Part shown: positions 15,516-34,428 of the stretch, one piece after another
Position numbering within the stretch: the stretch's first letter is position 1
Layout of the letters: every line of letters starts with the position of its first letter
Source of the DNA: a bacterium
Lineage (GTDB): Bacteria > Patescibacteriota > Minisyncoccia > Phycocordibacterales > UBA5272
Direction of reading: 5' to 3'
NCBI GenBank assembly: GCA_043736875.1
Contig: JAYTBU010000028.1
Span: forward strand, 1 to 35,172
Length of the DNA: 35,172 nt
The notes under the pieces: generated by a model
Seen by the model: only the letters and a program-made list of their open reading frames with translations
Databases searched by the model: none
What the model was told of the DNA's origin: nothing
Made by a program: the position numbers and the translations under genes

Positions 15516-15588
15516 GGGCGGTTAGCTCAGTTGGTAGAGCGCTACATTGACGTTGTAGATGTCAGGGGTTCGAATCCCTTATCGCCCA
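15516..15588 (+). tRNA. tRNA-Val: tRNA-Val (anticodon GAC)
   Basis: Manual cloverleaf fold. Acceptor GGGCGGT/ATCGCCC with one G-U pair; D arm GCTC-AGTTGGTA-GAGC; anticodon stem CTACA/TGTAG with loop TTGACGT (GAC); 5-nt variable loop; T arm AGGGG-TTCGAAT-CCCTT; discriminator A. The 3' CCA is not encoded (next bases are CA A). Confidence 0.9.
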
Positions 15589-15628
15589 CAAATAAAATCC
15601 CAAAAGGAATTTATCTTAGTGATTTAAA

Positions 15629-16027
15629 ATGCAAGATATATATACAGAAAATATTTTGGAGAAAGCGAGAGATAAAAGTTTTGACATAGACAATCAGGAC
15701 ATATTTTATTTTGATCTAGATCAAAATTATAAAAGGGGTATAGGTACCAATCCTAGTTGTGGTGATACAGGCGACGTATATTTTTTATTAGAAAATAATA
15801 TTATAAAAAATATAAAGTTAAACAAAGAGGGTTGTGCCATATCGCAGGCAGGACTAGTTATGTTATCAGAAAAAATAATAGGCAAGAGTATAGTAGAGTT
15901 AAAAAATATAATGCCGAGTGACATATATGATATGCTTCAAATACAAATAAGTCCCTCGCGTGCTGGTTGCGCCCTTTTGTGTTATAATGCTTTAGAGGAT
16001 TTTTTAAAGAAATATGCTACAAATTAA
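15629..16027 (+). CDS. sufU: SufU/IscU-family Fe-S cluster scaffold protein
   Basis: Three conserved Cys lie in family-typical contexts: NPSCGD, EGCAISQAG and SRAGCALLCYNALE. These resemble SufU NPTCGD / GCSISMAS / RIKCATL. The length is 132 aa. Confidence 0.8.
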   Translation: MQDIYTENILEKARDKSFDIDNQDIFYFDLDQNYKRGIGTNPSCGDTGDVYFLLENNIIKNIKLNKEGCAISQAGLVMLSEKIIGKSIVELKNIMPSDIYDMLQIQISPSRAGCALLCYNALEDFLKKYATN

Positions 16028-16712
16028 AGACCTAAAAATAAACACAAAAGATGGGAAAGAGATTATAGAAAAAGCTAATCTAGTTTTAAGTGCTGGACAA
16101 ATAGTAAAGCTGACAGGTGAAAATGGTAGTGGTAAAACTAGTTTTTTAAATGCTATTTTTAAGCATTTTGATTATGACATAGTCTCTGGAGATGTTTTGC
16201 TTAGTGGTGGCGGCGACGAAGTCGCCGCCAAAAGCATTTTAAGTTCGCAGACTTTTGAAATGGTTAGAAGTGGTATGTATTTAGGGCAGCAATTTGTGCC
16301 AGAAATACAAGGAGTGAGTAATATCAAATTTTTATACAAAGCTTTTCAGAATATTTACCCAGAAGATAAAAAAAATATTATAGATTTTAAAAATGAACTT
16401 GAAAAATACTGCGATGATTTTGAAATAGATAAAACTTTATTAAGTAGAGATATTAACTTTGGATTTTCAGGAGGTCAGAAAAAGATTTTTGAAATGCTAC
16501 ATATACTTGCATTAAAACCAAAATACATATTTTTAGACGAGATAGATAGTGGCGTCGATGAGTTTTCTAAAATCAAAATCTATAACATTATAAATCATAT
16601 ACAGAGAACTGGAGCAGCATTTTTGATAACTTCACATGATACAAATATAAAAGACTATATAGATTTTGATGCAGAATATATTATAGAAAATAAAATCTTA
16701 AAAGCATGTTAA
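16014..16712 (+). CDS. sufC: SufC-like ABC ATPase for Fe-S cluster assembly
   Basis: Walker A GENGSGKTS; signature plus Walker B NFGFSGGQKKIFEMLHILALKPKYIFLDEIDSGVD, as in the SufC GFSGGEKKR...LDExDSGLD pattern; H-loop ITSHD. It overlaps sufU by 14 nt. Confidence 0.8.
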   Translation: MLQIKDLKINTKDGKEIIEKANLVLSAGQIVKLTGENGSGKTSFLNAIFKHFDYDIVSGDVLLSGGGDEVAAKSILSSQTFEMVRSGMYLGQQFVPEIQGVSNIKFLYKAFQNIYPEDKKNIIDFKNELEKYCDDFEIDKTLLSRDINFGFSGGQKKIFEMLHILALKPKYIFLDEIDSGVDEFSKIKIYNIINHIQRTGAAFLITSHDTNIKDYIDFDAEYIIENKILKAC

Positions 16713-17029
16713 CAGAAGACAAAATATTAGAAAGCCTAAAAAGTATTATAGATCCAGAGTTAAACATAGACATAGTTAGGCTCGGGCTAATACGCGATAT
16801 TAAAATAGGGGAATACTTTGCTGAGATAAAAAGTTATGAATATATAAAAATAATAATCACACTAACAACACCGATGTGCCCATTTGCAGATATTATAATT
16901 AGTGACATAAAAGATAATATAACAGAGCTTTGTTTTGTTGCTGGTGTAAAAAGTGAAATAGAGGTAGATGTGACTTTTGATCCGCCATGGACATGCCCAG
17001 AGGATATTAGGCTAGAAATGGGGGTTTAG
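16706..17029 (+). CDS. DUF59 / SufT-like Fe-S assembly protein
   Basis: IIDPELNIDIVRLGLI ... TLTTPMCP ... DPPW are the hallmark motifs of the DUF59 (MIP18/SufT) family. ATGTTAA overlap with the sufC stop. Confidence 0.75.
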   Translation: MLTEDKILESLKSIIDPELNIDIVRLGLIRDIKIGEYFAEIKSYEYIKIIITLTTPMCPFADIIISDIKDNITELCFVAGVKSEIEVDVTFDPPWTCPEDIRLEMGV

Positions 17030-21590: not shown

Positions 21591-22994
21591 ATGATTGATA
21601 TGTCTAATATAGAAGTAAATAAAAAAATATCTAAAAATGTAGCGATAATTTTAGCTGCTGGGATTAGCTCTAGACTAAAAGGGTCTAAACCTAAGCAGTT
21701 CTTGAGGTTGGGAGGTAAAACTTTAATAGAGCACACTTTGCGAGCATTTGATATCAATAAAGATACATATGAAATTATTCTCGTTATTAACGAAGAATAT
21801 TTAGAAGAGGCAAACTCTCATGTTTTAAACAGTTGTATAAATAAAAAAGTTCACATAGTTTATGGGGGGAATAACAGAAGAGAGTCCTCATTTAAAGCGC
21901 TGTCTTTCTGTAAAAAATTTTATTCAACAGAGAAAGTAAATGTTTTAATTCATGACGCTGCAAGACCTCTCTTGTCACAACAAATAATAAATAATGTCGT
22001 AAAAGCTCTCACTATCTACGAAGCTGTAGATGTTGCCATAGATCCTGTTGATACCCTAATTCAAGTAAATAAAGAAAGTGGGTTAATCGACAGGATTCCA
22101 AGCAGGAGTGATTTTATGAACGGACAGACACCTCAAGGATTTGACCTGAATCTAATATATGAAGCACATGAGAAGTCTCTTCTTTGCGCAAACTTTGAAG
22201 TTTCTGACGATTGTGGTATTTTAAAAAAAATGTTTCCAGAAGTTAAAATATATGTTGTTTATGGCTCCAATAAAAATATGAAAGTTACTTACAAAGAAGA
22301 CCTTTATATATTAGATAAATATTTACAAATTAATGAAGCTTATTCGGAGTCTTTTCAAGATTTTTCCCACCTAAGAGACAAAACAATTGTGGTTTTTGGG
22401 GGAAATAGTGGCATAGGTGAAGAAATATGTAGCCAGGTAAAAAAATACACTAGGAATGTTTTTGCTTTAAGTAGGAGAAATGGTTGTGATGTTCGAAACA
22501 AGGAAAACGTACAACAGAAACTTGCTGATATTTTTAAAGAGACAGGTTCCATAGATCATGTTATAGTAACTGCCGCCGTACTTAATAAAAACAAAATAAC
22601 AGATCTGGTAAATGATGATAAGGATAATCATTTTAGTGTAAATTTTACTGGGAGTGTAAATGTTTCAAGTGCTGCATATGAATACATTATAAAAAGCAAA
22701 GGCTCCATATTTCTATTTGCCTCCAGCTCTTACTCTTTGGGTAGAGGCGGCTATAGTATGTATGGCGCCAGCAAAGCTGCTTTAGTTAATTTTGTTCAGG
22801 CTGCTTCAGAAGAGTGGAATGGGAAAGTTATTATAAATTGTATCAATCCAGAAAGAGTAAAGACTCCAATGAGATTAGATTCTTTTGGCTCGGAGAAGGG
22901 TGTAGACATGTTGCTGCCGTCAGAGGTAGCATATTACACGCTCGGCTTACTGTCTACAGATTTGTCAGGTATGGTTTTCAGTATAAAAAAATAA
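21591..22994 (+). CDS. Bifunctional CDP-ribitol synthase-like protein (Bcs1/TarI-TarJ type): IspD/TarI cytidylyltransferase fused to a short-chain dehydrogenase/reductase
   Basis: N-terminal half: VAIILAAGISSRLKGSKPKQFLRLGGKTLIEHTL and IHDAARPL, which are IspD/TarI motifs. C-terminal half: VVFGGNSGIGEEI (TGxxxGxG-like), S...YGASKAAL (catalytic YxxxK) and INPERVKTPM. The order and size (467 aa) match the Haemophilus Bcs1-type fusion. Confidence 0.75.
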   Translation: MIDMSNIEVNKKISKNVAIILAAGISSRLKGSKPKQFLRLGGKTLIEHTLRAFDINKDTYEIILVINEEYLEEANSHVLNSCINKKVHIVYGGNNRRESSFKALSFCKKFYSTEKVNVLIHDAARPLLSQQIINNVVKALTIYEAVDVAIDPVDTLIQVNKESGLIDRIPSRSDFMNGQTPQGFDLNLIYEAHEKSLLCANFEVSDDCGILKKMFPEVKIYVVYGSNKNMKVTYKEDLYILDKYLQINEAYSESFQDFSHLRDKTIVVFGGNSGIGEEICSQVKKYTRNVFALSRRNGCDVRNKENVQQKLADIFKETGSIDHVIVTAAVLNKNKITDLVNDDKDNHFSVNFTGSVNVSSAAYEYIIKSKGSIFLFASSSYSLGRGGYSMYGASKAALVNFVQAASEEWNGKVIINCINPERVKTPMRLDSFGSEKGVDMLLPSEVAYYTLGLLSTDLSGMVFSIKK

Positions 22995-22998
22995 TTAA

Positions 22999-25023
22999 AT
23001 GAAAAAAGATATAGCTTTTATAATTTACTACCCATTTCAATTTTATGTATATAAAAACATATATAAACATTTATTGGACAGGTCCATTTTCATAATAGAT
23101 TTGTACAACTTTTCTGAACATGATGACATAAATACATTTGGCAGCATTAGAGACTTGCTAGAGAAAAATAATATAGAATATAGAATCATCAAAAAAGAAG
23201 AGTATCAAATTAAAACAAAAATTCAAGAAGTATTTTTTGGTATAGATCTAGCTGTGTCTGTCTGGGAGCAGGGATGTGTAACATTACTTGATAACATTGA
23301 TGGTTTGACTCATATAAAAAAAGTTGGCTTAAGTTATGGTGTTGGTAAGCAGCTAACTATGGTAAGGCCAAGCAGGGCAATTTATGACTTGATACTACCA
23401 TATGGAAAAAGTGAGGAGAAATACTACTCTCTTTTTGCGAAAACCATACCGATAGGAAACCCAAAGTTTGACGATTTTTATGAAAATAATTTAGACCACT
23501 CTCTTGTAGAAAATCTAAAATTAAATAAAAATAAAAAGACTGTACTCTATTTGCCGACGCACAGTAATCTGGGGTCATTTAAACAGGTCATGCCAGAGCT
23601 TATAAAGTTAAAAGATAAGTATAATATACTAATAAAAATACACTACTTTATAGAAAGAGAAGAGTCTGAGTTTATTTCTACTCTCAAACTTTCCGGAGTG
23701 CACTTTTTAAAAGATGATACAGATCTGTTGCCTCTTCTTAAGGTTTGTGACATGGCTATAAGCGATAATTCTAGTGTTATATTTGATGTAATGCAGGCTG
23801 ACAAACCTCTGCTCTTAGAAGATATTTGGAACGAAGAGTTTTTTGAAAAAGATATACATAAATTAGATGAGGTAAAAAGAGGTATAGTAGCACCACTCAC
23901 ATACCCAGATTCTATAGAGCAGAGGATAAAAAGGGAGGGTAAAGTAGCTTTAAATAAAAATGTTAAAAATCTTAACAAAGATATTGAATATGCGATCAGC
24001 AATGACAGTTTTTACTCCTTGTACAGAAAAGATATTCTGTTTGAAACTATTGAGTATACAGATGGTGATTGTGGAAAGAGGGGGGCAGATGCTATCCTCG
24101 GACTCCTGTCTGGAGACATAGAGCCAAGAAAAGGTATAATGTATTATAGAGACATAAGAGAAAAATCTCTTTATCAAATAGGCCAGATGAGCAGCATCAG
24201 CAAAGTTGTCTCTGGAGAAGTTTTTGACGTAAACAGTATACAGTATGTTATTTTTTGTGAAAATATAAAGGACTCTAATACTAGTTTAGATGCTATTATT
24301 GATATGGGTGCAGAGAGAGATAGTGTAACGTTAGTTTCTAACGTAGAAAAAGAAGATTTTAGGACCGTGAAGTATTTAGATATTAAAAGTTTTATGCAAA
24401 ACAAAAAAGTTTTATTCTTAAAGTCTGGAGTTGTTGTGAGTAAAGATGACTTGTCAAAGATTTTTACCAGAGTAAACATAGAAGATACTACATGCATATC
24501 TTTATCAACTAAAAGAAAATATTCAAGCCTGGAAGATATTTTTATAAATCTAAAACTACCTTTCCTTAAAAGCTTAAAAAATAAAAATGCTTATTTTACA
24601 ACAGATTTATTTTGTAATTTTTATGGTTTTGTGCCATCAGAGTATAATGCTGTTTTGCTCGGAGAGACTCTTGTTTCTGAACTCTTCAAGCGAAATGATA
24701 CTATAAAAATTTATGATAGTATTATTTTTTTCTTAAACACTAGATCTGATAAAATAAAAATTTTGATGCTTAATATTTTCACAGACCTTAACTTTGTAAA
24801 AGATTCTCCAGAGCTACTTTCAGAAAAAAGTGTACAATTTTCTTTTTTACAAAAATACTCCAGCATGCAATTTTTAAAAGACTTACTGTCAGACGGTGAA
24901 AATAAAAAGTATCATAAAATGATGAGCAGGTTGAAAATATTTTTACTTGTGTTTCTGTATAGATTTTTATTATATCTAAATCGCCACAAAAACAAATTAG
25001 AGAGAAAAATTAATCAGTTGTAA
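22999..25023 (+). CDS. TagF/TarL-like CDP-alditol phosphotransferase (Glyphos_transf family), with an unrecognised C-terminal extension of about 270 aa and a terminal hydrophobic helix
   Basis: KKTVLYLPTHS (compare YAPTxR), LIKIHYF, and LLKVCDMAISDNSSVIFDVMQADKPLL (compare D-LITDYSSxxFDF..L.KP). It starts 4 nt after the upstream gene. The C-terminus is LKIFLLVFLYRFLLYLN. Confidence 0.6.
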   Translation: MKKDIAFIIYYPFQFYVYKNIYKHLLDRSIFIIDLYNFSEHDDINTFGSIRDLLEKNNIEYRIIKKEEYQIKTKIQEVFFGIDLAVSVWEQGCVTLLDNIDGLTHIKKVGLSYGVGKQLTMVRPSRAIYDLILPYGKSEEKYYSLFAKTIPIGNPKFDDFYENNLDHSLVENLKLNKNKKTVLYLPTHSNLGSFKQVMPELIKLKDKYNILIKIHYFIEREESEFISTLKLSGVHFLKDDTDLLPLLKVCDMAISDNSSVIFDVMQADKPLLLEDIWNEEFFEKDIHKLDEVKRGIVAPLTYPDSIEQRIKREGKVALNKNVKNLNKDIEYAISNDSFYSLYRKDILFETIEYTDGDCGKRGADAILGLLSGDIEPRKGIMYYRDIREKSLYQIGQMSSISKVVSGEVFDVNSIQYVIFCENIKDSNTSLDAIIDMGAERDSVTLVSNVEKEDFRTVKYLDIKSFMQNKKVLFLKSGVVVSKDDLSKIFTRVNIEDTTCISLSTKRKYSSLEDIFINLKLPFLKSLKNKNAYFTTDLFCNFYGFVPSEYNAVLLGETLVSELFKRNDTIKIYDSIIFFLNTRSDKIKILMLNIFTDLNFVKDSPELLSEKSVQFSFLQKYSSMQFLKDLLSDGENKKYHKMMSRLKIFLLVFLYRFLLYLNRHKNKLERKINQL

Positions 25024-25057: not shown

Positions 25058-25066
25058 TGTTATAAT
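25058..25066 (+). promoter_or_regulatory. Extended -10 promoter (TGTTATAAT) upstream of the helical-ORF/YcaO gene pair
   Basis: Exact 9-mer in a 31-nt intergenic gap. In-frame ATGs lie at 25067 (abutting the -10, so unlikely to be transcribed) and 25076 (9-nt spacer). Confidence 0.6.
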
Positions 25067-25075
25067 ATGTTCATT

Positions 25076-25957
25076 ATGTATAATAAAAATATAGACATTA
25101 AGAAAGAAGTTTTGAAAAATATAGATGTATTATACTCGCAGATAGATTTTCAAAATTCTAAAATAAATATACATATTAATTATGAAAAAGGAGAAGACTA
25201 TCCTAGAATGGCTTTTGTTTTATTTTCGCTGAGCAGGGCCTACAAAAATAAGTTCCTAGATCAAGACAAGAAACAAGAGCTTTTGAAATTATTTTTTAGA
25301 ATATATGAACAAGTAAAACTTTCTGAAGATAAATCCCCTTTTTTGTTTGTCATGTTATATGGCATGAGAATGTTTAAAAATCTTGATGAGGATTATAATT
25401 TTATTATAGAAGATTTTAAAGAGCAAAATTATAGTCCCATATACAACAATACTATTATGGCGTCTATTTTTATGTCATGTTTTACAGAGTGTGATAAATT
25501 GAGAACAGGCTTTGATTACTCCCAAGAGATTTTTCTACAATGTAAAAAAATCTTTGACTACATTATTTTTTCCAACAAGTCAGAAGATTATGAAGCTTTT
25601 TATTTTTCTGAGTTGTCTACATTAGAAAAATCTTTGCCGTCTTACACATTAAAAGCAACTTACAAGTTGATAGAAGAAAAATTTTCAACAGGATACTTAC
25701 AGAGAAATGTCTCAGCTACAGGTGTAGCTAAATGTATGGAAGACTTTGCAAGGAGGGGGGAGTCACAGCTATTTAATAAGTGTATAAAGTTTTTAGAACA
25801 GAGAAAGTTAAGTAGATTTTCAGAGTATCTGAGACCTGATCAAGAGGTTTTTAAGGATAATCTTTTCACAGAAAATAATGATTCGCAATATATTTGCCTC
25901 GATACAAATGTTCACTTATTAAATACTTATTTAAATATTTATGAAAAAAACAATTAA
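25076..25957 (+). CDS. Hypothetical, predicted all-helical cytoplasmic protein, translationally coupled to the YcaO gene
   Basis: ORF in the track starts at TTG 25055. I prefer the ATG at 25076, downstream of the -10 box. No signal peptide or TM segment and no motif I recognise (no LanC, SagB nitroreductase or E1-like signatures seen). Its last 17 nt overlap the YcaO start. Confidence 0.6.
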   Translation: MYNKNIDIKKEVLKNIDVLYSQIDFQNSKINIHINYEKGEDYPRMAFVLFSLSRAYKNKFLDQDKKQELLKLFFRIYEQVKLSEDKSPFLFVMLYGMRMFKNLDEDYNFIIEDFKEQNYSPIYNNTIMASIFMSCFTECDKLRTGFDYSQEIFLQCKKIFDYIIFSNKSEDYEAFYFSELSTLEKSLPSYTLKATYKLIEEKFSTGYLQRNVSATGVAKCMEDFARRGESQLFNKCIKFLEQRKLSRFSEYLRPDQEVFKDNLFTENNDSQYICLDTNVHLLNTYLNIYEKNN

Positions 25958-27329
25958 ATTACTTTATGAAATAAGGCAAAATAGGGGGGCAAAGTTTATG
26001 TTCATGCCAAAAACTTTAAGTTTTTTTGAGATATGTAAATGTATATATTTTGAATATGTAAACATATGGAAAAGTGATGAGATTATTATAGTAAAATTTT
26101 TAAAAGAGCTTTTTCGAAAAGGTTTAATATTGGAAAAATCCTTAAGTTATAGTACTTATAATTTAGATAATTTTACTTATAATGATGTTAACATAACCAC
26201 TTCAGATAACAAAACTTTTTCAAGAGGAACCTCAATAGATAAGTCAGAAGCCTATGCAAAAGCTGTCGGAGAGGTGTTGGAGCGCACTTCTGTCAGGTAT
26301 AACAAGGATAAAGTTTTAATTGAGTCTCAGAAAAGTATGAGTGAAAAAAAATTAGATTTTATCTCTATTTCTGATTTTTCTCAGCCAACTCAGAAACAGT
26401 TAGAAAAGTACCTACATTTTAATATTGATAATAGTGATATATTTTCTTGGACAAAAGTCTTAAACATAAAAGATAATAAAGATTATTATGCCCCGTCACA
26501 GACAGTTTTTTATGGCAATGCCATATCTTATCCAAATGAGAAACATATAATACATCCAACCACTCATGGTGCAGGAGCTGGTTACACAGAGTACGATGCC
26601 GATAGGTCATGTATATGCGAGGTTATACATAGGCATTTTTATTTGAAAAACTGGTATGCAGGCAAGAGTGTAAACATTATAGACATAGACTCTATACCAA
26701 AAGATAAAAAGATATACAGTCTTATACAGGACTTGAAAAATAGAGATTTTAAAGTTAATCTACTTGATTATAGCGATCAGGCTGGCTTGCCGACTGTAAT
26801 GTGTGTTATAGAAAAAGAGGGTGGGTGGTCATGCGGAGGTACAACAGGAGTTAATATCGACAGCGTAATACAGAGAGCCATTAGCGAGTCGATGGCTGCA
26901 TATTTGTGGTACGCAAAAAATATAGCAGAAGAGGGTTGTAAAATATCGCATGTAGACATATCAAAAGTTGAAGATGGATTTGTGGACGATGTGTACGGAG
27001 AAACTAATAACAAGATCGCGATTTATAATCAAAAATATTTTATAGATAAAAATAAAAATAGTTTAGATTTCCTGCTGTCGGGCAAGGTAATACCTTACGA
27101 CAATAAATATAATAAAAACTTTAATTATGATATTAAAAAACATGCCATAGATATTTTTGGTGATGTTTATTTTTATAAAGTAGAAAATAATTATCTGCCT
27201 GATTTTAATTATTTTGTTAAAAAAGTTATAGTGCCAAATAGTTATTCATTTCCGATGGAGGAGAAATATAGTAGACCTACCCTAAATGGTGATTATCCAC
27301 AGGTAACAATTTTGAACCCTTTTGTATAA
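25941..27329 (+). CDS. YcaO-domain protein (SagD/TOMM cyclodehydratase-like)
   Basis: FSRGTSIDKSEAYAKAVGEVLERTS matches the GKG-x-AxxSAxxEAxER(Y)S ATP-site motif. HGAGAGYTEYDADRSCICEVIHRH aligns by eye to the NGxAxG...ExxERD region, with the second acidic residue replaced by His. DYSDQAGLPTVMCVI and GGTTGVNIDSVIQRAISESMAAY match the later YcaO blocks. The C-terminus ends ...ILNPFV. The first ~90 aa (…KFLKELFRKGLILE) could be an RRE-like winged-helix domain. Confidence 0.75.
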   Translation: MKKTIKLLYEIRQNRGAKFMFMPKTLSFFEICKCIYFEYVNIWKSDEIIIVKFLKELFRKGLILEKSLSYSTYNLDNFTYNDVNITTSDNKTFSRGTSIDKSEAYAKAVGEVLERTSVRYNKDKVLIESQKSMSEKKLDFISISDFSQPTQKQLEKYLHFNIDNSDIFSWTKVLNIKDNKDYYAPSQTVFYGNAISYPNEKHIIHPTTHGAGAGYTEYDADRSCICEVIHRHFYLKNWYAGKSVNIIDIDSIPKDKKIYSLIQDLKNRDFKVNLLDYSDQAGLPTVMCVIEKEGGWSCGGTTGVNIDSVIQRAISESMAAYLWYAKNIAEEGCKISHVDISKVEDGFVDDVYGETNNKIAIYNQKYFIDKNKNSLDFLLSGKVIPYDNKYNKNFNYDIKKHAIDIFGDVYFYKVENNYLPDFNYFVKKVIVPNSYSFPMEEKYSRPTLNGDYPQVTILNPFV

Positions 27330-27338
27330 CATTTTTAA

Positions 27339-27347
27339 TGTTATAAT
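27339..27347 (+). promoter_or_regulatory. Extended -10 promoter (TGTTATAAT), 6 nt before the ATG at 27354 (leaderless)
   Basis: Exact 9-mer in the 24-nt gap after the YcaO stop, followed by spacer taattt and then ATG. Confidence 0.65.
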
Positions 27348-27353
27348 TAATTT

Positions 27354-27557
27354 ATGAAAAATAAGAATATAAAGTTATTATTACTATCTTCTCCGCTTAT
27401 TATACTAGGGTTTTTTATAAATCTATTTAGTTTTAACACCGGTACCGAGGGTGCTGTCATAGAAAAAGCGTATGCAGATATAGCTACTCAGACAATTGAT
27501 GGTAGTAATTGTGCTGGCGGTGGTTCTTGTGAGGGTGCTTGTGGGTGTTGCAGCTAA
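27354..27557 (+). CDS. 67-aa Cys/Gly/Ser-tailed peptide: candidate RiPP precursor with a signal-peptide-like N-terminus
   Basis: MKNKNIKLLLLSSPLIILGFFINLFSFNTGTEGAVIEKAYADIATQTIDGSNCAGGGSCEGACGCCS. It has 5 Cys and 3 Ser in the last 17 residues, its own promoter and a tandem TAATAA stop. The core-coding DNA (27501..27554) is about 55% G+C by my count, within a very AT-rich locus. Confidence 0.65.
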   Translation: MKNKNIKLLLLSSPLIILGFFINLFSFNTGTEGAVIEKAYADIATQTIDGSNCAGGGSCEGACGCCS

Positions 27558-27568
27558 TAAATAAAAAT

Positions 27569-28600
27569 ATGAATAAAATAAAAATAATTACAACTATAGC
27601 TATATTAATACTGATCATACTTATCGGACTGATATTACTGAAACAGTCTAAAAATAGCAATATAGTTGTTAATAATAGCAGCTACACAAAGTACCCAAAT
27701 ACTATAGCTGAGCTAAAAAAAGATGAAAAGACGAGAATTTTAATTGATAGACTTTCCTCAGCTAACTCACTAGAAGTATTTAATTCTTTTAATGACTTAT
27801 CTAAAACTGAGTCGGATCAAAATAAAAAAGAGAGTCTCCAATTATTTGCAGGAGCCTCTTTGCTTGCTTTAGACAAAACTGCAGGGTCTGAGTATTTTAT
27901 GTCTATTGCTAACAATACACAAAATTCTAACTTGACCAAAGCTTATGCTATGATTAAAATATATCAAGAGTCTTTGGCCTATGCTAAACCAGAAATGTTA
28001 AAAGTCTTTTTTACTGACTATGAAAAAGATACAAAAGGCATGTCTGGCAGTGACATAAAATTAGTTATAAACAAAAAGATATTAGATGTTTATCCATTTG
28101 GATTAGCTGCAGCCAGAGCAGGAAGGCTGGAATTAGCCAAAGGCCCAACCTCAGAAAATGCAAAAGTTTTATACGCAAAGTATATGCCAATAATTGATAA
28201 TAATATAGATGAATTTTCAAAAACTGAGGGACAGAGACACTTTGTAAAAAACACATATCTTAACGCTGCAAAATTTTTGGCAGATCTTGAGGTTTATGGT
28301 GCGTCTAATGTTGTAGAGGTTCGTGCTTATTTTGACAAAGGTTATAATGAAGCACTCTCTCAAAAAGATGTGATGACAAAACATTTTATAATGATGGCTT
28401 ATGCTGATTACTTACTCTCTAAAAATCTAAACACAGACGCTGAAATAGTGCTATCTCAATTGGTTTTGCAAGATACCAGTAAAACGATTGCGCCAAGCTT
28501 ATCAGTTACAAAAGGTAAGGATTATCTCAGTGTGTTAAAATATATAAAGAGCAACAATACAGAACTTTCTACAAAGATAAAGAGTCTATTAAATAGGTAA
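27569..28600 (+). CDS. N-terminally membrane-anchored helical hypothetical protein
   Basis: The ATG at 27569 gives MNKIKIITTIAILILIILIGLILLKQ. The track's TTG start at 27539 overlaps the peptide ORF. The rest is helical and repeat-like with no recognisable motif. It lies 11 nt after the peptide stop. Confidence 0.65.
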   Translation: MNKIKIITTIAILILIILIGLILLKQSKNSNIVVNNSSYTKYPNTIAELKKDEKTRILIDRLSSANSLEVFNSFNDLSKTESDQNKKESLQLFAGASLLALDKTAGSEYFMSIANNTQNSNLTKAYAMIKIYQESLAYAKPEMLKVFFTDYEKDTKGMSGSDIKLVINKKILDVYPFGLAAARAGRLELAKGPTSENAKVLYAKYMPIIDNNIDEFSKTEGQRHFVKNTYLNAAKFLADLEVYGASNVVEVRAYFDKGYNEALSQKDVMTKHFIMMAYADYLLSKNLNTDAEIVLSQLVLQDTSKTIAPSLSVTKGKDYLSVLKYIKSNNTELSTKIKSLLNR

Positions 28601-28604
28601 TTAT

Positions 28605-29147
28605 ATGCAAAATAAAAATTGGAATATCTACATAGGTATATTAGCTTTCTTTTTGGGTTTGTTATTGGCTTTATCTTTTAGATTTTTAAAATATTCAGAA
28701 TATATAAATCCAAAAATAGTAGATATAGACCCAGTTATAGCTTATGAGAACATAAAATCTAATCCATCTAAATATATATTTATAGATGTTAGGTCAGAAT
28801 TTGAATATAACAATGCTCACGCTTCTTCTTCTATTAATCTGCCGATACACTATCTCTACGATGATACTCATGGTATTAAAAATGAAAAAGGTATACCAGT
28901 ACCCAAAAATACAGAGCAAGAAATATATCTAATATGTACAGGAGGGCGCCTTGCTGGGGTTGCTTATGGATATTTGGAGCACTATGGGTACAGGAATATA
29001 AAAAGAATAGAAGGAGGTATCAAAAACTGGGATACAAAAAATATGCCAGTTATAACAAAAAGCTTGTTTAATGATTACAAAGAAAAAAGTTTTGATATAG
29101 AGGTAAAATCAGCACCGCTAGACAAAGACTATGTTGAATCAAGATAA
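28605..29147 (+). CDS. Membrane-anchored rhodanese-domain sulfurtransferase
   Basis: N-terminal helix IYIGILAFFLGLLLALSF. Rhodanese signature FIDVRSEFEYNNAHASSSINLP. Active-site loop LICTGGRLAG with Cys codon at 28935..28937, followed by IEGGIKNW. Only a 4-nt gap from the upstream gene. Confidence 0.8.
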   Translation: MQNKNWNIYIGILAFFLGLLLALSFRFLKYSEYINPKIVDIDPVIAYENIKSNPSKYIFIDVRSEFEYNNAHASSSINLPIHYLYDDTHGIKNEKGIPVPKNTEQEIYLICTGGRLAGVAYGYLEHYGYRNIKRIEGGIKNWDTKNMPVITKSLFNDYKEKSFDIEVKSAPLDKDYVESR

Positions 29148-29832
29148 CATTTTAGTTTTTATAAAAAAGAATTTATTTTTAATACTGATTTCATTCTGTA
29201 TTCTTATTTTTTTTACTTATACAATAAAAACTAAGCTAGAAACTGGTAAGCAAGTAGAAAAAAGTTCTCTAGACATGTCGGGAGAATTATATAAAAAAGT
29301 AGATGATTCAGATCATTTTAAACTTAGAAATGCAACTGCAACCATAGATATTGTTAATTATTTTAGTTTGGACTGTCCATATTGTAGAAGATCTTATGTT
29401 TTAGAAGATTGGCTTTTGTTAAAAGAGAAGTATACAAATATTAATATTGTATACAGGCACAATCCATTACTATCTCAACCCTTATCAGCAGAGAAAGCTA
29501 TTATAACAGAATGTGTATACGGGCAGTCTGGAGATATGGGTATGTTTGGTTTTCTTGATCATGTTTTTTCTGATTTTGATATTGTAAATAAAAACAATGA
29601 TTGGATTAAAAAAGTTGCTAATTTTTACATAAGTTCAGAATCAGATTTTGAAAAATGTATGAGCGATGAAAGTGTAAAAAATAAAATCCAGAAACAAAAA
29701 AATGAGAATAACATATCTGGCATAACTTATACCCCAACTATTCTAATTTTTAAGGACGGGATTTTTATAAAAAAATATGAAGAAATAAGCGAAGAAAAGC
29801 TCATTAATATAATTAAATTATATGGTAAATAA
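29131..29832 (+). CDS. Membrane-anchored DsbA-like thioredoxin-fold thiol:disulfide oxidoreductase
   Basis: N-terminal helix LFLILISFCILIFFTYTI. CPYC active site (29374..29385) in the context NYFSLDCPYCRR. A TYTPT segment sits near the C-terminus where the DsbA cis-Pro loop is expected. It overlaps the rhodanese gene by 17 nt. Confidence 0.75.
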   Translation: MLNQDNILVFIKKNLFLILISFCILIFFTYTIKTKLETGKQVEKSSLDMSGELYKKVDDSDHFKLRNATATIDIVNYFSLDCPYCRRSYVLEDWLLLKEKYTNINIVYRHNPLLSQPLSAEKAIITECVYGQSGDMGMFGFLDHVFSDFDIVNKNNDWIKKVANFYISSESDFEKCMSDESVKNKIQKQKNENNISGITYTPTILIFKDGIFIKKYEEISEEKLINIIKLYGK

Positions 29833-30589
29833 ATATTTTCTAAAACTTAAAACCCAAAACCTAAAAAAGTATTTATGTTTTATTTTATTTATGTTTTTTT
29901 TGTCAGTATCTTTTTACTTTAGGCAAAATATTTATTTTTATACTGGAAATCAATTTTTTGGCGGCAAGATTGGTTATGCTAGCTATCACATATCACTTTA
30001 TAACATAGAAGTATCAGAATATTTTTTGCTAAAAGCTAATGATTTTGATAAAAAAATCATATGGAATAATTATCAGCTATCTAGAATTTATTTTATAAAA
30101 GGTGATTTGTATAAAGCTGTGCAGTATAGCAACAGAGAATTGGAATACTTTCCAGACAATTGTCGCACTCATTATATACGAGGGCTAGCTTATGGATATA
30201 AAAATGATTTAGATAATGCGATATCTGATTTCGAAAAGTTCAATACCTGTTTCCCTCTTAGCTGGGCAGGGCACAATGATTTGGCTTGGTTCTGGTTCAG
30301 AAAGGGTGATATGCAAAAAGTTGTCGATGTGGTAGAGGGGGTAATTACTAGTTATGATGACAACCCATGGATACAAAATACTTATGGTACAGCACTTATG
30401 AATCTTGGTCGGGGCAGCGAGGCATTGCTAGCTTTTGAAAAAGCAAAAGTGGCAAGTGAGAGCATGACAGAAACAGACTGGGGCAAAGCTTATCCAGGCA
30501 ATGATCCGTCTATATATGGAAAAGGGTTAAAAGCAATGCGAGAGACCATAGATAAAAATATCCAATTATTAAAAGAGGGAGATCTCTAA
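29822..30589 (+). CDS. Membrane-anchored TPR-repeat protein
   Basis: N-terminal helix YLCFILFMFFLSVSFYF. TPR-like units: YQLSRIYFIKGDLYKAVQYSNRELEYFPDN, HYIRGLAYGYKNDLDNAISDFEKF, LAWFWFRKGDMQKVVDVVEGV, YGTALMNLGRGSEALLAFEKA. It overlaps the DsbA-like gene by 11 nt. Confidence 0.7.
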   Translation: MVNKYFLKLKTQNLKKYLCFILFMFFLSVSFYFRQNIYFYTGNQFFGGKIGYASYHISLYNIEVSEYFLLKANDFDKKIIWNNYQLSRIYFIKGDLYKAVQYSNRELEYFPDNCRTHYIRGLAYGYKNDLDNAISDFEKFNTCFPLSWAGHNDLAWFWFRKGDMQKVVDVVEGVITSYDDNPWIQNTYGTALMNLGRGSEALLAFEKAKVASESMTETDWGKAYPGNDPSIYGKGLKAMRETIDKNIQLLKEGDL

Positions 30590-30665
30590 GGTTTTCCTTG
30601 CTTGTTTTTTATTTATTCTTATCCACATAAACAATTTTTAGTATTTACTATTTTTGGTATATATT

Positions 30666-30674
30666 TGTTATAAT
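30666..30674 (+). promoter_or_regulatory. Extended -10 promoter (TGTTATAAT), 6 nt before the ATG at 30681 (leaderless)
   Basis: Exact 9-mer followed by spacer atattt and then ATG. Confidence 0.65.
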
Positions 30675-30680
30675 ATATTT

Positions 30681-31319
30681 ATGAAACATAAAAATAAAAA
30701 TCTAATAAAATCTTCCTTTTCAGTTTTGCTTATATCTGCCTTATTTGGCTTTCTGTTTGTCTTTAATGTTACTCAAAAAGAAGTACCAGAGGCAGAGCTT
30801 CGCTTTGCTGAGCACAGCGATAACAAAAATATAAAGGGCTCAATGTTGCCAGCCAGTTGTGAATCACGCCCAAGGATTGGTACAGCTCATTTTGCAGGTG
30901 ACAGTAGCGGCTCTTGTGCCTGTGCTGTGACTGGACAGACTTGTAATGGTAATTATATATATAACCATAAAGCTGGTTGTGGTATCGGTTTTAATGTTGC
31001 TTATTGTACACATGGTTGCACTAATAATGGTGGCACACCAAATAGTTTTGGTCCTAGATGTAACGATGCTCCTGTGGCTGGTGGACCTAACTGTCCTGCT
31101 ACTACTGTATCGTGGGCTCCTGGTTGTAGTGCATATGTTGGTCCTTCAAATACTGGCGATGTTGTCAACGTAACTAACTCAGCAGCTGGTTACACAGGTA
31201 ATAACTCAGTCAGCTGTAACGGCAGCTCGGTCCAGGTTGACGGAGCTACATTTTCTGGGATACAACCATCATGCAAGGCTATACTTCCTCCGCCTCAAGT
31301 TCAGATTAATTTTAATTAG
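30681..31319 (+). CDS. Secreted or anchored Cys-rich (12 Cys) Gly/Asn/Thr-rich hypothetical protein
   Basis: The ATG at 30681 gives MKHKNKNLIKSSFSVLLISALFGFLFVFNVTQ. The track's start at 30654 lies inside the promoter. The mature part has 12 Cys (…SSGSCACAVTGQTCNGNY…GCGIGFNVAYCTHGCTNNGG…). The coding DNA is visibly more GC-rich than its neighbours. The stop codon is TAG. Confidence 0.7.
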   Translation: MKHKNKNLIKSSFSVLLISALFGFLFVFNVTQKEVPEAELRFAEHSDNKNIKGSMLPASCESRPRIGTAHFAGDSSGSCACAVTGQTCNGNYIYNHKAGCGIGFNVAYCTHGCTNNGGTPNSFGPRCNDAPVAGGPNCPATTVSWAPGCSAYVGPSNTGDVVNVTNSAAGYTGNNSVSCNGSSVQVDGATFSGIQPSCKAILPPPQVQINFN

Positions 31320-34020: not shown

Positions 34021-34428
34021 ATGAAAAAAGATTCTGATATTAAAAATTTTGAAGATTGGTTAAAAATAAAAGAGAAGACTGAAAATAGGGTTAGGGTAGA
34101 AGCTTATAAATATTCTGTTTTTTGGTGTGCATATGGTGAAAATATAGGGTCAGAAGTTTGTGGTAAAGGTGATAATTTCCTGAGGCCAGTTATAATTTTA
34201 AAAAAATTTGGAGACAGATGTGTTTTGGTCGCACCACTGACATCTAAAAATAATGAAGATAAAAATAATATAAATATTAAAATAGATACAGAAGAAAAAG
34301 AAAAGTGTGTACTAGTCAGTCAGATAAGAGTTGTGGACACAAAGAGGTTGTTTGATTATGTGGGTAAAGTGTCAAAGGAGAGTAGATTAAATCTAAAAGA
34401 GTCTTTTAATAAAATAATCAAAATATAA
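34021..34428 (+). CDS. PemK/MazF-family toxin-like protein with no adjacent antitoxin ORF
   Basis: VFWCAYGENIGSEVCGKGDNFLRPVIILKKFGDRCVLVAPLTSK ... CVLVSQIRVVDTKRL matches the PemK/MazF pattern (G-E..G..RPvlIl...v.v.PlTs...QIR.iD..RL). It starts 8 nt after the proS stop and has no Shine-Dalgarno sequence. Confidence 0.7.
   Translation: MKKDSDIKNFEDWLKIKEKTENRVRVEAYKYSVFWCAYGENIGSEVCGKGDNFLRPVIILKKFGDRCVLVAPLTSKNNEDKNNINIKIDTEEKEKCVLVSQIRVVDTKRLFDYVGKVSKESRLNLKESFNKIIKI

Follow-up and report, generated by a model that had tools for sequence, protein, structure and literature searches.

The 35,172-nucleotide stretch of Patescibacteriota DNA analysed here (the window) carries a gene block in which a small Cys-containing peptide, a TPR-like scaffold, a rhodanese and a DsbA-like protein are inherited together as a block in many related uncultured Patescibacteria; this conserved gene set points to a putative undescribed extracellular maturation of a ribosomal peptide. 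The best explanation, to which we give about an even chance of being right, is a Patescibacteria/Paceibacteria-specific RiPP-like system around an exported peptide, in which cytoplasmic tailoring would be followed by extracytoplasmic handling of the Cys residues by the rhodanese, DsbA-like and TPR proteins.

A five-gene unit behind a single promoter

The initial annotation described five packed + strand genes headed by the peptide gene; the gaps recomputed from the ORF coordinates (11, 4, −17 and −11 nt) agree with it, and the packing and a promoter in front of the peptide gene both support one unit of five genes. The features of the unit and its neighbours are:

25058-25066, + strand: TGTTATAAT extended −10 box of the unk300-YcaO unit, 9 nt ahead of the ATG at 25076
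25076-25957, + strand: unk300, orphan 293-aa protein, obligate upstream partner of the YcaO
25941-27329, + strand: YcaO1, YcaO-domain protein, presumed cytoplasmic tailoring enzyme (PF02624, E=2.5e-31)
27339-27347, + strand: TGTTATAAT promoter of the five-gene unit, ending 6 nt ahead of the peptide ATG
27354-27557, + strand: precursor peptide gene (67 aa), head of the unit
27569-28600, + strand: helical343 gene (343 aa, ATG start), second in the unit
28605-29147, + strand: rhodanese gene (180 aa), third in the unit
29131-29832, + strand: DsbA-like gene (233 aa), fourth in the unit
29822-30589, + strand: TPR gene (255 aa), fifth in the unit
30575-30599, + strand: hairpin and T-run, putative end of the transcription unit (−11.2 kcal/mol)
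30666-30674, + strand: TGTTATAAT box of the gene for the Cys-rich 212-aa protein, 6 nt before the ATG at 30681
30681-31319, + strand: Cys-rich N-anchored 212-aa protein (cys212), 12 Cys, with its own TGTTATAAT box

The window contains 11 copies of the TGTTATAAT word where 1.7 would be expected; in 100 shuffles the count never reached 11. No + strand copy lies between 27348 and 30665, and the claim of a single promoter for the unit thus came out stronger than expected. The 6-nt spacing to the start codon is repeated at the ATGs at 21591, 30681, 31398 and 34556; such a constant distance implies leaderless mRNAs, including a predicted leaderless mRNA of the five-gene unit with its 5′ end at or near the peptide ATG. 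Among relatives, a −10-like box was found at −17 to −11 before 14 of the 23 peptide genes (compared with 25% for long ORFs and 4.4% for random positions; p=3e-4); over the 10 loci with the contiguous block described below, such boxes preceded six peptide genes, two helical protein genes, one rhodanese gene and no DsbA gene. The rhodanese and DsbA-like reading frames overlap by 14-23 nt in 8 of these 10 loci, which together with the peptide-first promoter argues for co-expression. The terminator hairpin is weak and not exceptional (z = −0.64 against shuffles).

As the initial annotation stated, all four larger products begin with a single hydrophobic helix (scores of 1.6-3.3 in Kyte-Doolittle 19-aa windows) and have no further hydrophobic stretch. 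The domain calls of that annotation were borne out by Pfam and a motif scan: a rhodanese with CTGGR, a Thioredoxin_4 protein with CPYC and a TPR protein. Pfam has no family for the peptide or the 343-aa protein, and in the Pfam and NCBIfam searches no curated family covered the peptide, the helical protein or unk300.

Conservation of the block in related genomes

About 20 loci of Paceibacteria-type MAGs contain a family peptide followed by an N-anchored helical protein, and the contiguous order peptide-helical-rhodanese-DsbA is present in 10 distinct loci (the window, L002/L003, L006, L013/L014, L016, L017, L018, L020, L021 and L024). The gene order, whose conservation in relatives had been proposed as the check on the operon, is clearly conserved; because it recurs in 10 loci with a YcaO only 35-45% identical to that of the window, the arrangement goes beyond chance. 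All the loci come from one bacterial class (Paceibacteria-type genomes), so shared ancestry could explain part of the synteny. The block shifts together with the peptide through rearrangements that leave wholly different flanks (window, L006, L016, L020, L023 and L024). When loci were centred on the rhodanese, and picked solely by identity and length of available sequence, all five independently sampled homologues had a family peptide nearby. Neither rhodanese nor DsbA was found near five YcaO1 loci (L005, L007, L008, L009 and L015), and these two proteins are therefore not obligatory for the peptide family; the constant part across relatives is apparently the peptide with its scaffold protein.

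The precursor peptide and its tailoring enzymes

The proposal that the peptide is an export substrate fits its sequence, which looks built for export: the n-region MKNKNIK, an h-region spanning residues 8-27 (nt 27375-27434), in which P14 and G19 are invariant, and A-Y-A-D at residues 39-42 (nt 27468-27479), followed by an acidic core of 26 aa (residues 42-67, nt 27477-27554) with five Cys (positions 53, 59, 63, 65 and 66). The family peptides found in related loci (n=23) have a K-rich n-region, an h-region with a conserved P-x4-G, an A-x-A-D motif (of the A-x-A-(D/E) type in all) and an acidic Gly/Cys tail; with an invariant P and G inside it, the h-region looks more like a target of specific recognition than a generic signal. 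Between the h-region and the A-x-A site there are 10-35 residues, a long distance for cleavage by signal peptidase I. All 23 cores lack K and R and contain 1-5 Cys; the odd number of Cys emphasised in the initial annotation holds for the window peptide but is not a family rule. In the YcaO1-linked peptides P14, G19, A41, D42, C59 and G61 are invariant, C59 (in C-E-G) being the sole invariant Cys. The core sequences are hypervariable, and their composition follows the adjacent enzymes (Gly/Glu/Cys with YcaO; Pro-rich with a 2OG-Fe(II) oxygenase in L024).

The unk300 gene adjoins or overlaps YcaO1 in every related locus, and the protein has 27 invariant residues, including S-Q-Y-x-C-L-D-T-x-A-H, with no match in sequence searches of Pfam and PDB; its AF2 model was too poor to use (pLDDT 43.6). 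YcaO1, with an invariant GEV(L/F)ER motif in its family, scored 98 bits against the SagD-type model TIGR03604, under the cutoff of 219; its closest solved relatives are MusD, TruD, MJ1094 and McbD, and a search of 5.8 billion proteins yielded only 17 homologues. The tailoring sets seem to be interchangeable: depending on the relative, the peptide is accompanied by YcaO1/unk300, by a second YcaO together with a SagB-type dehydrogenase, by a 2OG-Fe(II) oxygenase, or by no such enzyme nearby. In L016, where a YcaO1 module coexists with a YcaO2/SagB module, rhodanese and DsbA follow the YcaO1 module. The window contains no SagB-type dehydrogenase, DsbB or fam8 genes. The combination of a YcaO with a membrane-face set was retained in part: the YcaO is a frequent neighbour, but a dispensable one, the block lying 6 kb from unk300-YcaO in L006 and having no YcaO within the ±10 kb inspected in L020 and L024.

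This dispensability bears on the strongest alternative, which we consider unlikely: a YcaO-independent extracytoplasmic sulfur/redox carrier, in which the peptide, cleaved or still anchored, would act as a ribosomally made thiol of low molecular weight, much like the Gly-rich arm of SoxY with its Cys, loaded with sulfane sulfur by the rhodanese or cycled in its redox state by rhodanese and DsbA, the YcaO and other enzymes being optional or acting elsewhere. Besides the loci with a distant YcaO or none nearby, it is favoured by the wider rhodanese family (64 clusters, against 17 in the YcaO1 set), by the rank of the rhodanese as the most conserved component (57-72% identity where the YcaO has 35-45%), and by a Cys in a Gly-rich tail as the only core feature common to all rhodanese/DsbA-linked peptides. 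However, in 14 loci the peptide gene lies immediately 3′ of a YcaO gene, the cores look like the Gly/Cys/Ser substrates of microcin-B17-type systems and co-vary in composition with the adjacent tailoring enzymes, their hypervariability would be unusual for a housekeeping carrier, and a distal YcaO is possible in L020 and L024 beyond the inspected 10 kb.

Identity and orientation of the rhodanese and the DsbA-like protein

The 180-aa protein is an N-anchored single-domain rhodanese (PF00581, E=8.5e-13; closest solved structure 6mxv, E=1.4e-19) with the catalytic C111 in CTGGR (residues 111-115, nt 28935-28949); the catalytic Cys is present in all 64 homologues (44-85% identity) and the loop CTGGRLA in 43 of them. 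The 233-aa protein, also N-anchored, belongs to Thioredoxin_4 (PF13462, E=8.9e-13; closest solved structure 4n30, E=4.7e-8) and has CPYC at residues 82-85 (nt 29374-29385), a cis-Pro TPT at 201-203 and a second Cys pair (C128/C176); conservation across 11 orthologues extends to the CxxC (with a variable dipeptide), to this second Cys pair and to the TP(T/S) loop. This protein might serve as the cell's general oxidase.

An outward orientation of both domains is favoured, not decisively: for the rhodanese because the net charge of the flanks points to N-in/C-out in 46 of the 64 homologues and to the reverse in 5; for the DsbA-like protein because the second Cys pair and the cis-Pro loop are conserved, and its family and best PDB matches are of the disulfide isomerase/DsbA type. 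The presence of SecDF and DsbB genes directly behind the block in L013, L017, L021 and L023 also fits an extracytoplasmic location. Raw K/R counts in the flanks are balanced for both proteins (2.2 vs 2.1 for the rhodanese). The dedicated extracytoplasmic module of the initial annotation therefore stands as a conserved set co-inherited with the peptide, but its outward topology is favoured only, by charge bias and the second Cys pair.

The orientation also bears on a second alternative, distinctly improbable in our judgement, that a cytoplasm-facing rhodanese is the sulfur donor for YcaO thioamidation or another sulfur insertion at the membrane, DsbA acting later or being unrelated. The rhodanese gene is 2 nt from the YcaO gene in L022, without DsbA, and divergent from YcaO2-SagB in L023; two conserved basic residues directly follow the TM helix (SF-R-x-x-R/K-Y), with the K/R balance given above; the thioamide-forming MJ1094 is among the nearest solved YcaO relatives; and TfuA is absent. 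Against this reading are the net-charge bias and long N-tails with 3-5 K/R, the retention of the rhodanese in L020 and L024, the overlap of its gene with the DsbA-like gene, the YcaO's best matches to cyclodehydratases (MusD, TruD, SagD-type model), and a C-terminal N-P-F-P, which is typical of azoline-forming YcaOs. Least probable is the absence of any dedicated link, with rhodanese and DsbA being part of a neighbourhood that serves envelope export and oxidative folding in general (DsbA, SecDF, DsbB) and their adjacency inherited within the class: SecD, SecF and DsbB genes do lie directly downstream of the DsbA-like gene in L013, L017, L021 and L023, the loci are all from one class, each has a single DsbA-like gene, and the true clients could be other exported Cys-rich proteins encoded nearby (cys212, fam8), but the block travels with the peptide while its flanks change completely, the window's flanks have no SecDF or DsbB, promoter position and overlapping frames speak for co-expression, and the five sampled rhodanese homologues all adjoin a family peptide.

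Scaffold and TPR proteins

The second place after the peptide is occupied in all loci by a helical343 homologue or positional analogue. This orphan family (52 clusters among 1.84 billion representatives) matches consensus TPR structures as a profile (E=3e-4), and Pfam TPR_21 matches 6 of 46 members; the window protein has no Cys, its AF2 model is all-alpha at low confidence (pLDDT 51.8), and the only near-invariant residues are R124, A127 and P176. It is predicted to be an N-anchored, TPR-like, non-enzymatic scaffold, with flank-charge counts across its family (19:12:10) uninformative on topology. The 255-aa protein matches TPR_2 (E=1.6e-9), TPR_8 and TPR_1, and its family profile, with 22 invariant residues, matches consensus TPR structures at E=1e-43; an N-flank with 3-6 K/R favours N-in. 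A TPR gene is in the neighbourhood of 15 loci, mostly on the opposite strand. Its place in the operon, as initially annotated, holds for the window only, since most relatives transcribe the TPR gene divergently together with that of the Cys-rich 212-aa protein; by tblastn the two genes adjoin in L003, L013, L017, L018, L021, L022 and L023.

Proposed maturation pathway

In the preferred reading, that of a RiPP-like system with an extracytoplasmic step, a leaderless transcript from the TGTTATAAT box would encode the 67-aa precursor and four single-pass membrane proteins. The unk300-YcaO pair would first tailor the core in the cytoplasm, by ATP-dependent backbone activation at the invariant Cys of (G/S)-C-E-G, most likely giving a thiazoline; if the YcaO does convert Cys to azolines, fewer free thiols are left for DsbA and rhodanese. 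The hydrophobic leader would route the peptide via Sec, consistent with the conserved set having no ABC exporter or dedicated peptidase, and either signal peptidase I or a dedicated protease may cut after A-x-A. On the outward side of the membrane, the anchored rhodanese, together with the DsbA-like protein to which it is translationally coupled, would process the remaining thiols, typically a C-terminal Cys-Cys pair, through disulfide formation or sulfane sulfur transfer, while both TPR-type proteins may serve to hold the peptide or to present it. That the peptide is persulfidated or oxidised is purely our inference. The end product would be a small, strongly acidic, sulfur-rich surface peptide, with a metal-binding or redox/sulfur-carrier role as the most plausible one.

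Relation to known systems

Microcin B17 (McbA with McbBCD) and streptolysin S (SagA with SagBCD) likewise place a YcaO-domain enzyme beside a small precursor with a Gly-rich core containing Cys/Ser, and several of the relatives add a second YcaO and a SagB-type nitroreductase-family dehydrogenase. The present system differs in its leader, a Sec-like signal or anchor with an A-x-A site; in the orphan all-helical 293-aa partner in place of an E1-like or Ocin-ThiF-like one; in the absence of an ABC exporter and, in the window, of a dehydrogenase; in the YcaO score below the SagD-family cutoff; and in the additional anchored rhodanese, DsbA-like and TPR proteins.

Bufferins are MNIO-enzyme RiPP metallophores whose precursors have Sec signal peptides. 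They share with the system proposed here a ribosomal Cys precursor with a Sec-type signal, cytoplasmic Cys modification before export and action in the envelope; the differences are a YcaO rather than MNIO/DUF692 with DUF2063, another host lineage, the long spacer between h-region and cleavage site, and the extracytoplasmic rhodanese/DsbA/TPR set. No sequence relation of the peptide to bufferins was found, and Pfam and NCBIfam gave no match for it.

Dedicated thiol-disulfide oxidoreductases are encoded in other peptide operons: BdbA/BdbB in that of sublancin, and PedC/BrcD in those of pediocin-type bacteriocins. There too a thioredoxin-fold oxidoreductase accompanies an exported Cys peptide, presumably setting its disulfides, but those systems are without rhodanese, YcaO and TPR scaffolds, and their peptides carry double-glycine or Sec leaders paired with ABC transporters. 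The DsbA-like protein matches NCBIfam TIGR01295 (PedC_BrcD) weakly (E=0.022; 14.6 bits, far under the 120-bit cutoff).

PspE interplays with DsbA/DsbC in E. coli, and periplasmic sulfur relays include SoxYZ with its arm GGCGG, the rhodanese-like SoxL, the thioredoxins SoxS/SoxW, and Sud; the SoxY acceptor is a Cys within a Gly-rich C-terminal tail. The likeness is a single-Cys, single-domain rhodanese beside thioredoxin-fold proteins in a (here predicted) extracytoplasmic location, whereas the rhodanese here is membrane-anchored and shares its operon with a small, hypervariable peptide, Sox, quinone and cytochrome genes are absent from the surroundings, and the hosts are fermentative, reduced-genome bacteria. 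PspE and Sud are both among the solved relatives of the rhodanese (2jtq, E=0.002; 1qxn, E=0.003).

Organisation and transcription of the five-gene unit

The initial annotation described five ORFs packed behind a single promoter, a Cys peptide followed by four anchored proteins, and this layout was recovered. The gaps of 11, 4, -17 and -11 nt were all reproduced in the six-frame ORF list, the rhodanese, DsbA-type thioredoxin fold and TPR domains were borne out by Pfam and NCBIfam, and the CTGGR loop (rhodanese residues 111-115), the CPYC site (DsbA-like residues 82-85) and the five Cys of the peptide were all present. In all four larger proteins the only strongly hydrophobic segment is the N-terminal one. 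The 67-aa and 343-aa products gave no Pfam or NCBIfam match, and in Pfam, NCBIfam and PDB searches no curated model covered the peptide, the helical scaffold (helical343) or unk300, a 293-aa orphan protein encoded upstream (25076-25957).

Table. Five-gene unit (six-frame ORF list) and copies of the extended -10 box word TGTTATAAT (exact-word count) in the window.
27354-27557, +, peptide ORF, 67 aa
27569-28600, +, helical343 ORF, 343 aa from ATG
28605-29147, +, rhodanese ORF, 180 aa
29131-29832, +, DsbA-like ORF, 233 aa
29822-30589, +, TPR255 ORF, 255 aa
30575-30599, +, hairpin and T-run at the end of the unit (weak evidence alone)
334, 15980, 17109, 21576, 25058, 27339, 30666, 31383, 32709 and 34541, +, starts of TGTTATAAT copies
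29500-29508, -, sole minus-strand copy of TGTTATAAT, within the DsbA-like gene

The single promoter at the head of the peptide gene also held: TGTTATAAT occupies 27339-27347, stopping 6 nt short of the peptide ATG, and there is no + strand copy in 27348-30665. The window contains 11 copies of this word compared to 1.7 expected, a number reached by none of 100 shuffles. The exact 6-nt spacing to the ATG is found at five starts (an IspD-like gene at 21591, the peptide at 27354, a Cys-rich protein at 30681, MurF at 31398 and an M50 protease at 34556), and a further copy lies ahead of unk300. This position, repeated at five starts, indicates leaderless mRNAs, and this organism seems, from the sequence, to transcribe its genes mostly without leaders; by the pattern TGTTATAAT-N6-ATG, leaderless transcription units can be mapped simply in these genomes. 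The minus-strand copy inside the DsbA-like gene could be an antisense promoter.

The evidence for promoters consists of the exact-word test and a position-specific -10 test with controls; a generic sigma-70 and terminator scan was discarded for this purpose, as it returned 46 sites compared to 37 expected in this AT-rich DNA. A -10-like box at -17 to -11 lies ahead of 14 of the 23 peptide genes of the relatives; the share was 25% for long ORFs and 4.4% for random positions (p=3e-4). Among ten loci, it preceded the peptide gene in six, the helical gene in two, the rhodanese gene in one and the DsbA-like gene in none, and eight of the ten show a 14-23 nt overlap between the rhodanese and DsbA-like genes. 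The placement of TGTTATAAT, the distribution of -10 boxes and the gene overlaps indicate that the five genes form one peptide-headed unit. The peptide gene starts only 24 nt beyond the unit formed by unk300 and YcaO1 (25941-27329), with no terminator in the gap, so that read-through into the peptide unit is also likely.

The precursor peptide family

Judged by its relatives, the 67-aa peptide is a real, conserved gene. Its family has 23 members in the related loci. In all of them the n-region is rich in K/R and is followed by a hydrophobic h-region, position -3 is A or V and position -1 is A or G, and each has an A-x-A-(D/E)-type motif (AYAD, AHAD, AKAD and similar). The spacer between the h-region and the A-x-A site measures 10-35 residues across the family (19 in the window), and the short c-region (about 3-7 residues) expected for a signal peptidase I site was not found in these peptides. 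Leaders are conserved and cores hypervariable with Gly and Cys; the cores have 23-60 residues, are acidic, lack Lys and Arg and contain 1-5 Cys, a C-terminal-proximal Cys-Cys pair being common. The odd number of Cys highlighted initially did not hold as a family feature, since the peptides linked to rhodanese and DsbA-like genes have 2, 3, 4 or 5.

The 13 peptides linked to YcaO1 share invariant P14 and G19 (both within the h-region), A41, D42, C59 and G61. The P-x4-G in their h-region (window 27375-27434, residues 8-27) is odd for a generic signal peptide, and the invariant Pro and Gly hint at recognition inside the membrane or by a cytoplasmic partner; together with the invariant acidic +1 residue, they suggest some specific recognition beyond signal peptidase I.

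YcaO, unk300 and other tailoring genes

YcaO1 matched PF02624 above the cutoff (E=2.5e-31). Only 17 homologues were found among 5.8 billion proteins (35-45% identity), and GEVxER, like other acidic residues, is invariant across them. Its nearest solved relatives are the heterocyclases MusD and TruD, followed by MJ1094 and McbD; against the SagD-type model TIGR03604 it scored 98.4 bits (cutoff 219.25) and is not a member by score. The invariable partner of YcaO1 is unk300, with 27 invariant residues. Sequence searches with unk300 against Pfam and the PDB found nothing, nor did they connect it to any protein of known function, and its single-sequence AF2 model was unusable (pLDDT 43.6). Neither an E1-like/Ocin-ThiF (RRE) or TfuA partner nor a SagB-type dehydrogenase was found in the window.

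Three tailoring sets were found among the loci: unk300 with YcaO1; YcaO2, a second, distant YcaO type, with a nitroreductase-family (SagB-type) dehydrogenase; and a 2OG-Fe(II) oxygenase with an SDR-like protein (L024). The core composition tracks these genes, being Gly/Glu/Cys-rich near YcaO and Pro-rich near the oxygenase. In L024, the oxygenase and SDR-like genes (7256-8969) replace YcaO ahead of a peptide with the Pro-rich core DTPISPITPITPCPGPSCCDISAGD, which suggests that tailoring enzymes may be interchangeable on a common leader and export chassis. The second YcaO was seen in L005, L007, L008, L009, L010, L015, L016, L022 and L023. The dehydrogenase, present in some relatives only and beside a second YcaO, accompanies it in L008, L009, L010, L016, L022 and L023, often with a family peptide and helical protein of their own. 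L022 also encodes a DUF6817 protein.

The resemblance to the microcin B17 and streptolysin S systems lies in the Gly/Cys core, the YcaO and, in relatives only, the SagB-type dehydrogenase; two features of such clusters are missing, as there is no E1-like, Ocin-ThiF or TfuA partner and the YcaO falls below the SagD model cutoff. In one paper, CPR YcaO genes appear simply as antiSMASH hits.

The precursor gene directly follows a YcaO gene in 14 loci. YcaO is nevertheless not the obligatory component that the initial annotation implied: L020 (a 757-kb contig) and L024 have no YcaO within 10 kb of the block of peptide, helical, rhodanese and DsbA-like genes. These two loci are what a carrier peptide acting independently of YcaO, comparable to SoxY, would predict; given the 14 loci with adjacent YcaO and precursor genes, we consider this reading unlikely.

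Rhodanese and DsbA-like proteins

The rhodanese is the best conserved component, with 57-72% identity to its relatives compared to 35-45% for YcaO. It matched PF00581 (E=8.5e-13, 49 bits, cutoff 22) and carries the six-residue active-site loop of the superfamily, the conserved C-T-G-G-R-L, which begins with the catalytic Cys; all 64 homologues keep this Cys, 43 of them with the loop CTGGRLA, and the nearest solved structure is 6mxv (E=1.4e-19). The anchor is followed by a conserved juxtamembrane motif, SF-R-x-(I/V)-(R/K)-Y-(S/T)-(E/D). Identity with the PspE equivalog was rejected (NF007627, 25.7 bits, cutoff 102), and the N-terminal anchor looks uncleaved, where a PspE-type protein would be soluble in the periplasm after loss of its signal peptide. 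No rhodanese relatives were found on viral contigs in a viral-contig scan.

Positive-inside counts were ambiguous for single sequences and informative for the rhodanese family only, through net charge: the flanks of 46 of the 64 homologues favour N-in/C-out, 13 are neutral and five are reversed. A rhodanese facing the cytoplasm and supplying sulfur to YcaO would fit L022, where the rhodanese gene abuts the YcaO2-SagB pair; with the family charge pattern pointing outwards, we regard it as improbable.

The DsbA-like protein matched PF13462 (E=8.9e-13, 49.2 bits, cutoff 23.2), and PF01323 (DSBA) remained below threshold (19.8, cutoff 25.6). Besides CPYC, it has a T-P-T cis-Pro loop. In its 11 orthologues the CxxC is always kept, with a varying dipeptide, and conservation extends to the T-P-(T/S) loop and to a further two Cys, C128 and C176. 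This second pair would look like the structural disulfide of an exported domain and, together with the single N-terminal helix, argues for a catalytic domain outside the cytoplasmic membrane; the charge counts of the flanks are balanced. DsbB is encoded near the DsbA-like gene in L013, L017 and L023, where it follows SecD and SecF, and was not found in the window. SecD and SecF genes lie directly downstream of the DsbA-like or rhodanese gene in four loci (L013 13412-17873, L017 8973-12063, L021 11319-13573 and L023 10635-13403).

Helical343, TPR255 and the Cys-rich protein

The family of helical343 is an orphan one, with 52 clusters among 1.84 billion representatives; this count comes from an exhaustive representative search, used because a word-indexed search gave one relative only. 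The family profile matched consensus TPR structures over one repeat pair only (E=3e-4 to 1e-2), and all its Pfam matches were sub-threshold: TPR_2 in 5 of 46 members and, in 6 of 46, TPR_21, which we take to be a YfgM-type family of N-anchored periplasmic proteins. With three near-invariant positions only and no Cys, helical343 looks like a scaffold, not an enzyme. Flank charge counts across the family were uninformative on topology, and the AF2 model (two-sequence alignment) was all-alpha, with a pLDDT of 51.8 that is too low for use. The proteins of approximately 370-430 aa encoded 3' of the peptide in L005, L007, L008, L010 and L022 showed no detectable relation to helical343 by HMM and hhalign and are treated as positional analogues only.

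TPR255 scored above the cutoff for TPR_2, TPR_8 and TPR_1, its family profile matched consensus TPR structures at E=1e-43, and it has 22 invariant residues and a clearly basic N-flank. It is not a paralogue of helical343 (hhalign probability 4%). TPR and Cys-rich 212-aa genes occur in the neighbourhood of about 15 loci, mostly divergent and upstream; the position of the TPR gene inside the operon, counted initially as part of the set, and that of the Cys-rich gene behind it are peculiar to the window. The Cys-rich protein cys212 (30681-31319) has 12 Cys, an N-terminal anchor and no Pfam family, and a TGTTATAAT box of its own precedes the gene. Conservation covers roughly the first 80-120 residues, and it adjoins the TPR gene in L003, L013, L017, L018, L021, L022 and L023. 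It is possibly a further client of the DsbA-like protein.

Conservation of the gene set among related loci

The window proteins were mapped onto 23 further loci, obtained by YcaO-centred scans and independent rhodanese-centred look-ups. The MAGs that contain the loci with YcaO homologues are labelled Candidatus Paceibacterota, Paceibacteria, Minisyncoccia and Adlerbacteria (Patescibacteria/CPR). The peptide is always followed by an N-anchored helical protein of roughly 340-430 aa, mostly a helical343 homologue and otherwise a positional analogue, and the contiguous order peptide, helical, rhodanese, DsbA-like was found in ten distinct loci.

Table. Loci with recurrent gene arrangements.
Contiguous peptide-helical-rhodanese-DsbA: window, L002/L003, L006, L013/L014, L016, L017, L018, L020, L021, L024
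Polytopic membrane protein just upstream of unk300-YcaO or the peptide: L002 397-1614, L003 7741-8961, L013 4968-6212, L018 4219-5457
Polytopic membrane protein, further loci: L020 7373-8611, L024 6010-7239, L008 15845-17260 (-)
IspD-like and CDP-glycerol glycerophosphotransferase genes: window 21591-25023, L006 5740-8453, L020 2400-5805

In L006 the block lies 6 kb away from unk300-YcaO, with teichoic-acid-type genes between them, and of the two modules in L016, one with YcaO2/SagB and one with YcaO1, it is the YcaO1 module that has the rhodanese and DsbA-like genes behind it. In a rhodanese-centred sample of five, picked only by identity (49-68%) and by the size of the surrounding contig, all five rhodanese genes adjoin a family peptide, four of them with a DsbA-like gene, in place of which L022 has the YcaO2-SagB pair. 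Five YcaO1 loci have no rhodanese or DsbA-like gene nearby (L005, L007, L008, L009 and L015). A mere neighbourhood with housekeeping oxidative-folding genes would fit the SecD, SecF and DsbB genes found behind the DsbA-like gene in relatives, and is very improbable in view of the ten contiguous blocks and the rhodanese-centred sample.

Two other arrangements recur around the cluster. One is a gene for a polytopic membrane protein of 405-414 aa, unassigned in Pfam and Cys-rich in its C-terminal domain, which is absent from the window. The other is the teichoic-acid-type pair, in which an IspD-like cytidylyltransferase/SDR accompanies a CDP-glycerol glycerophosphotransferase, found near the peptide or YcaO in three loci.

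Proposed function of the module

The peptide, the scaffold, the rhodanese and the DsbA-like protein very probably form one functional module. Of the dedicated extracytoplasmic module put forward initially, functional linkage and an export signal stand, on co-inheritance and the leader respectively; an outward topology is only favoured, and the chemistry is one that we infer. In the scheme that we propose, a cytoplasmic step by unk300-YcaO would alter the core, the simplest reaction being cyclodehydration at the (G/S)-C-E-G motif, on its invariant Cys; the hydrophobic leader would direct Sec export, with a cut after A-x-A; and outside the membrane, leftover thiols would be acted on by the rhodanese and the DsbA-like protein via disulfide formation or sulfane-sulfur transfer, the TPR-type proteins serving as peptide holders. 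This would yield a short peptide, strongly acidic and rich in sulfur, its most plausible role being metal binding or that of a redox/sulfur carrier. We give this composite scheme, from the cytoplasmic step to the role of the product, about an even chance. A more specific version is tentative and rather doubtful: a Patescibacteria-specific class of Sec-exported peptides in which the anchored rhodanese, translationally coupled to the DsbA-like protein, would load sulfane sulfur onto the conserved C-terminal Cys or Cys-Cys or build a vicinal/tri-sulfide bridge there, with two TPR-type membrane scaffolds presenting the peptide and interchangeable cytoplasmic tailoring.

Parts of the scheme have counterparts elsewhere: bufferins are RiPP precursors with Sec-type leaders, the sublancin (BdbA/B) and pediocin (PedC) operons include dedicated thiol-disulfide oxidoreductases, the exported rhodanese PspE of E. 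coli interacts with the Dsb system, and SoxY has a Gly-flanked carrier Cys served by the rhodanese-like SoxL and the thioredoxin SoxS. We know of no described system that joins a YcaO substrate with a Sec leader to a rhodanese/DsbA/TPR set, and, to our knowledge, rhodaneses as an enzyme class have no association with RiPP pathways. The sequences point to a system of the YcaO/RiPP-like kind that would combine a Sec-type leader with a rhodanese/DsbA/TPR module acting outside the cytoplasm and would be restricted to Patescibacteria. It would widen YcaO and RiPP biology by Sec-type leaders on YcaO substrates and an extracellular maturation step with a rhodanese, and it provides a concrete candidate substrate for an anchored rhodanese-DsbA pair; the physiological clients of such membrane-anchored pairs are generally obscure. 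Patescibacteria (CPR) are abundant, mostly uncultured episymbionts with reduced genomes, from which we know of few natural products or envelope redox systems. The locus is a conserved, testable gene set with three orphan families (precursor, TPR-like scaffold and YcaO partner).

Other features of the window

The window has a low GC content and all its genes on one strand, among them genes for a giant surface protein, for murein and for aminoacyl-tRNA synthetases, all of which fits an origin in Patescibacteria. SdrD_B, DUF11 and prealbumin-like repeats occur in two predicted surface proteins of very large size:
8-3277, 1089 aa
3858-15425, 3855 aa

Rfam and tRNA scans of the window returned tRNA-Val (GAC) at 15516-15589 only; behind it lies a small Fe-S assembly set (NifU_N-like, SufC-like ABC ATPase and FeS_assembly_P; 15516-17029 with the tRNA). 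At 34021-34428 there is a gene for a PemK/MazF-type toxin, upstream of which no ORF for an obvious antitoxin was called, and a PemK gene is also found near the cluster in L013/L014.
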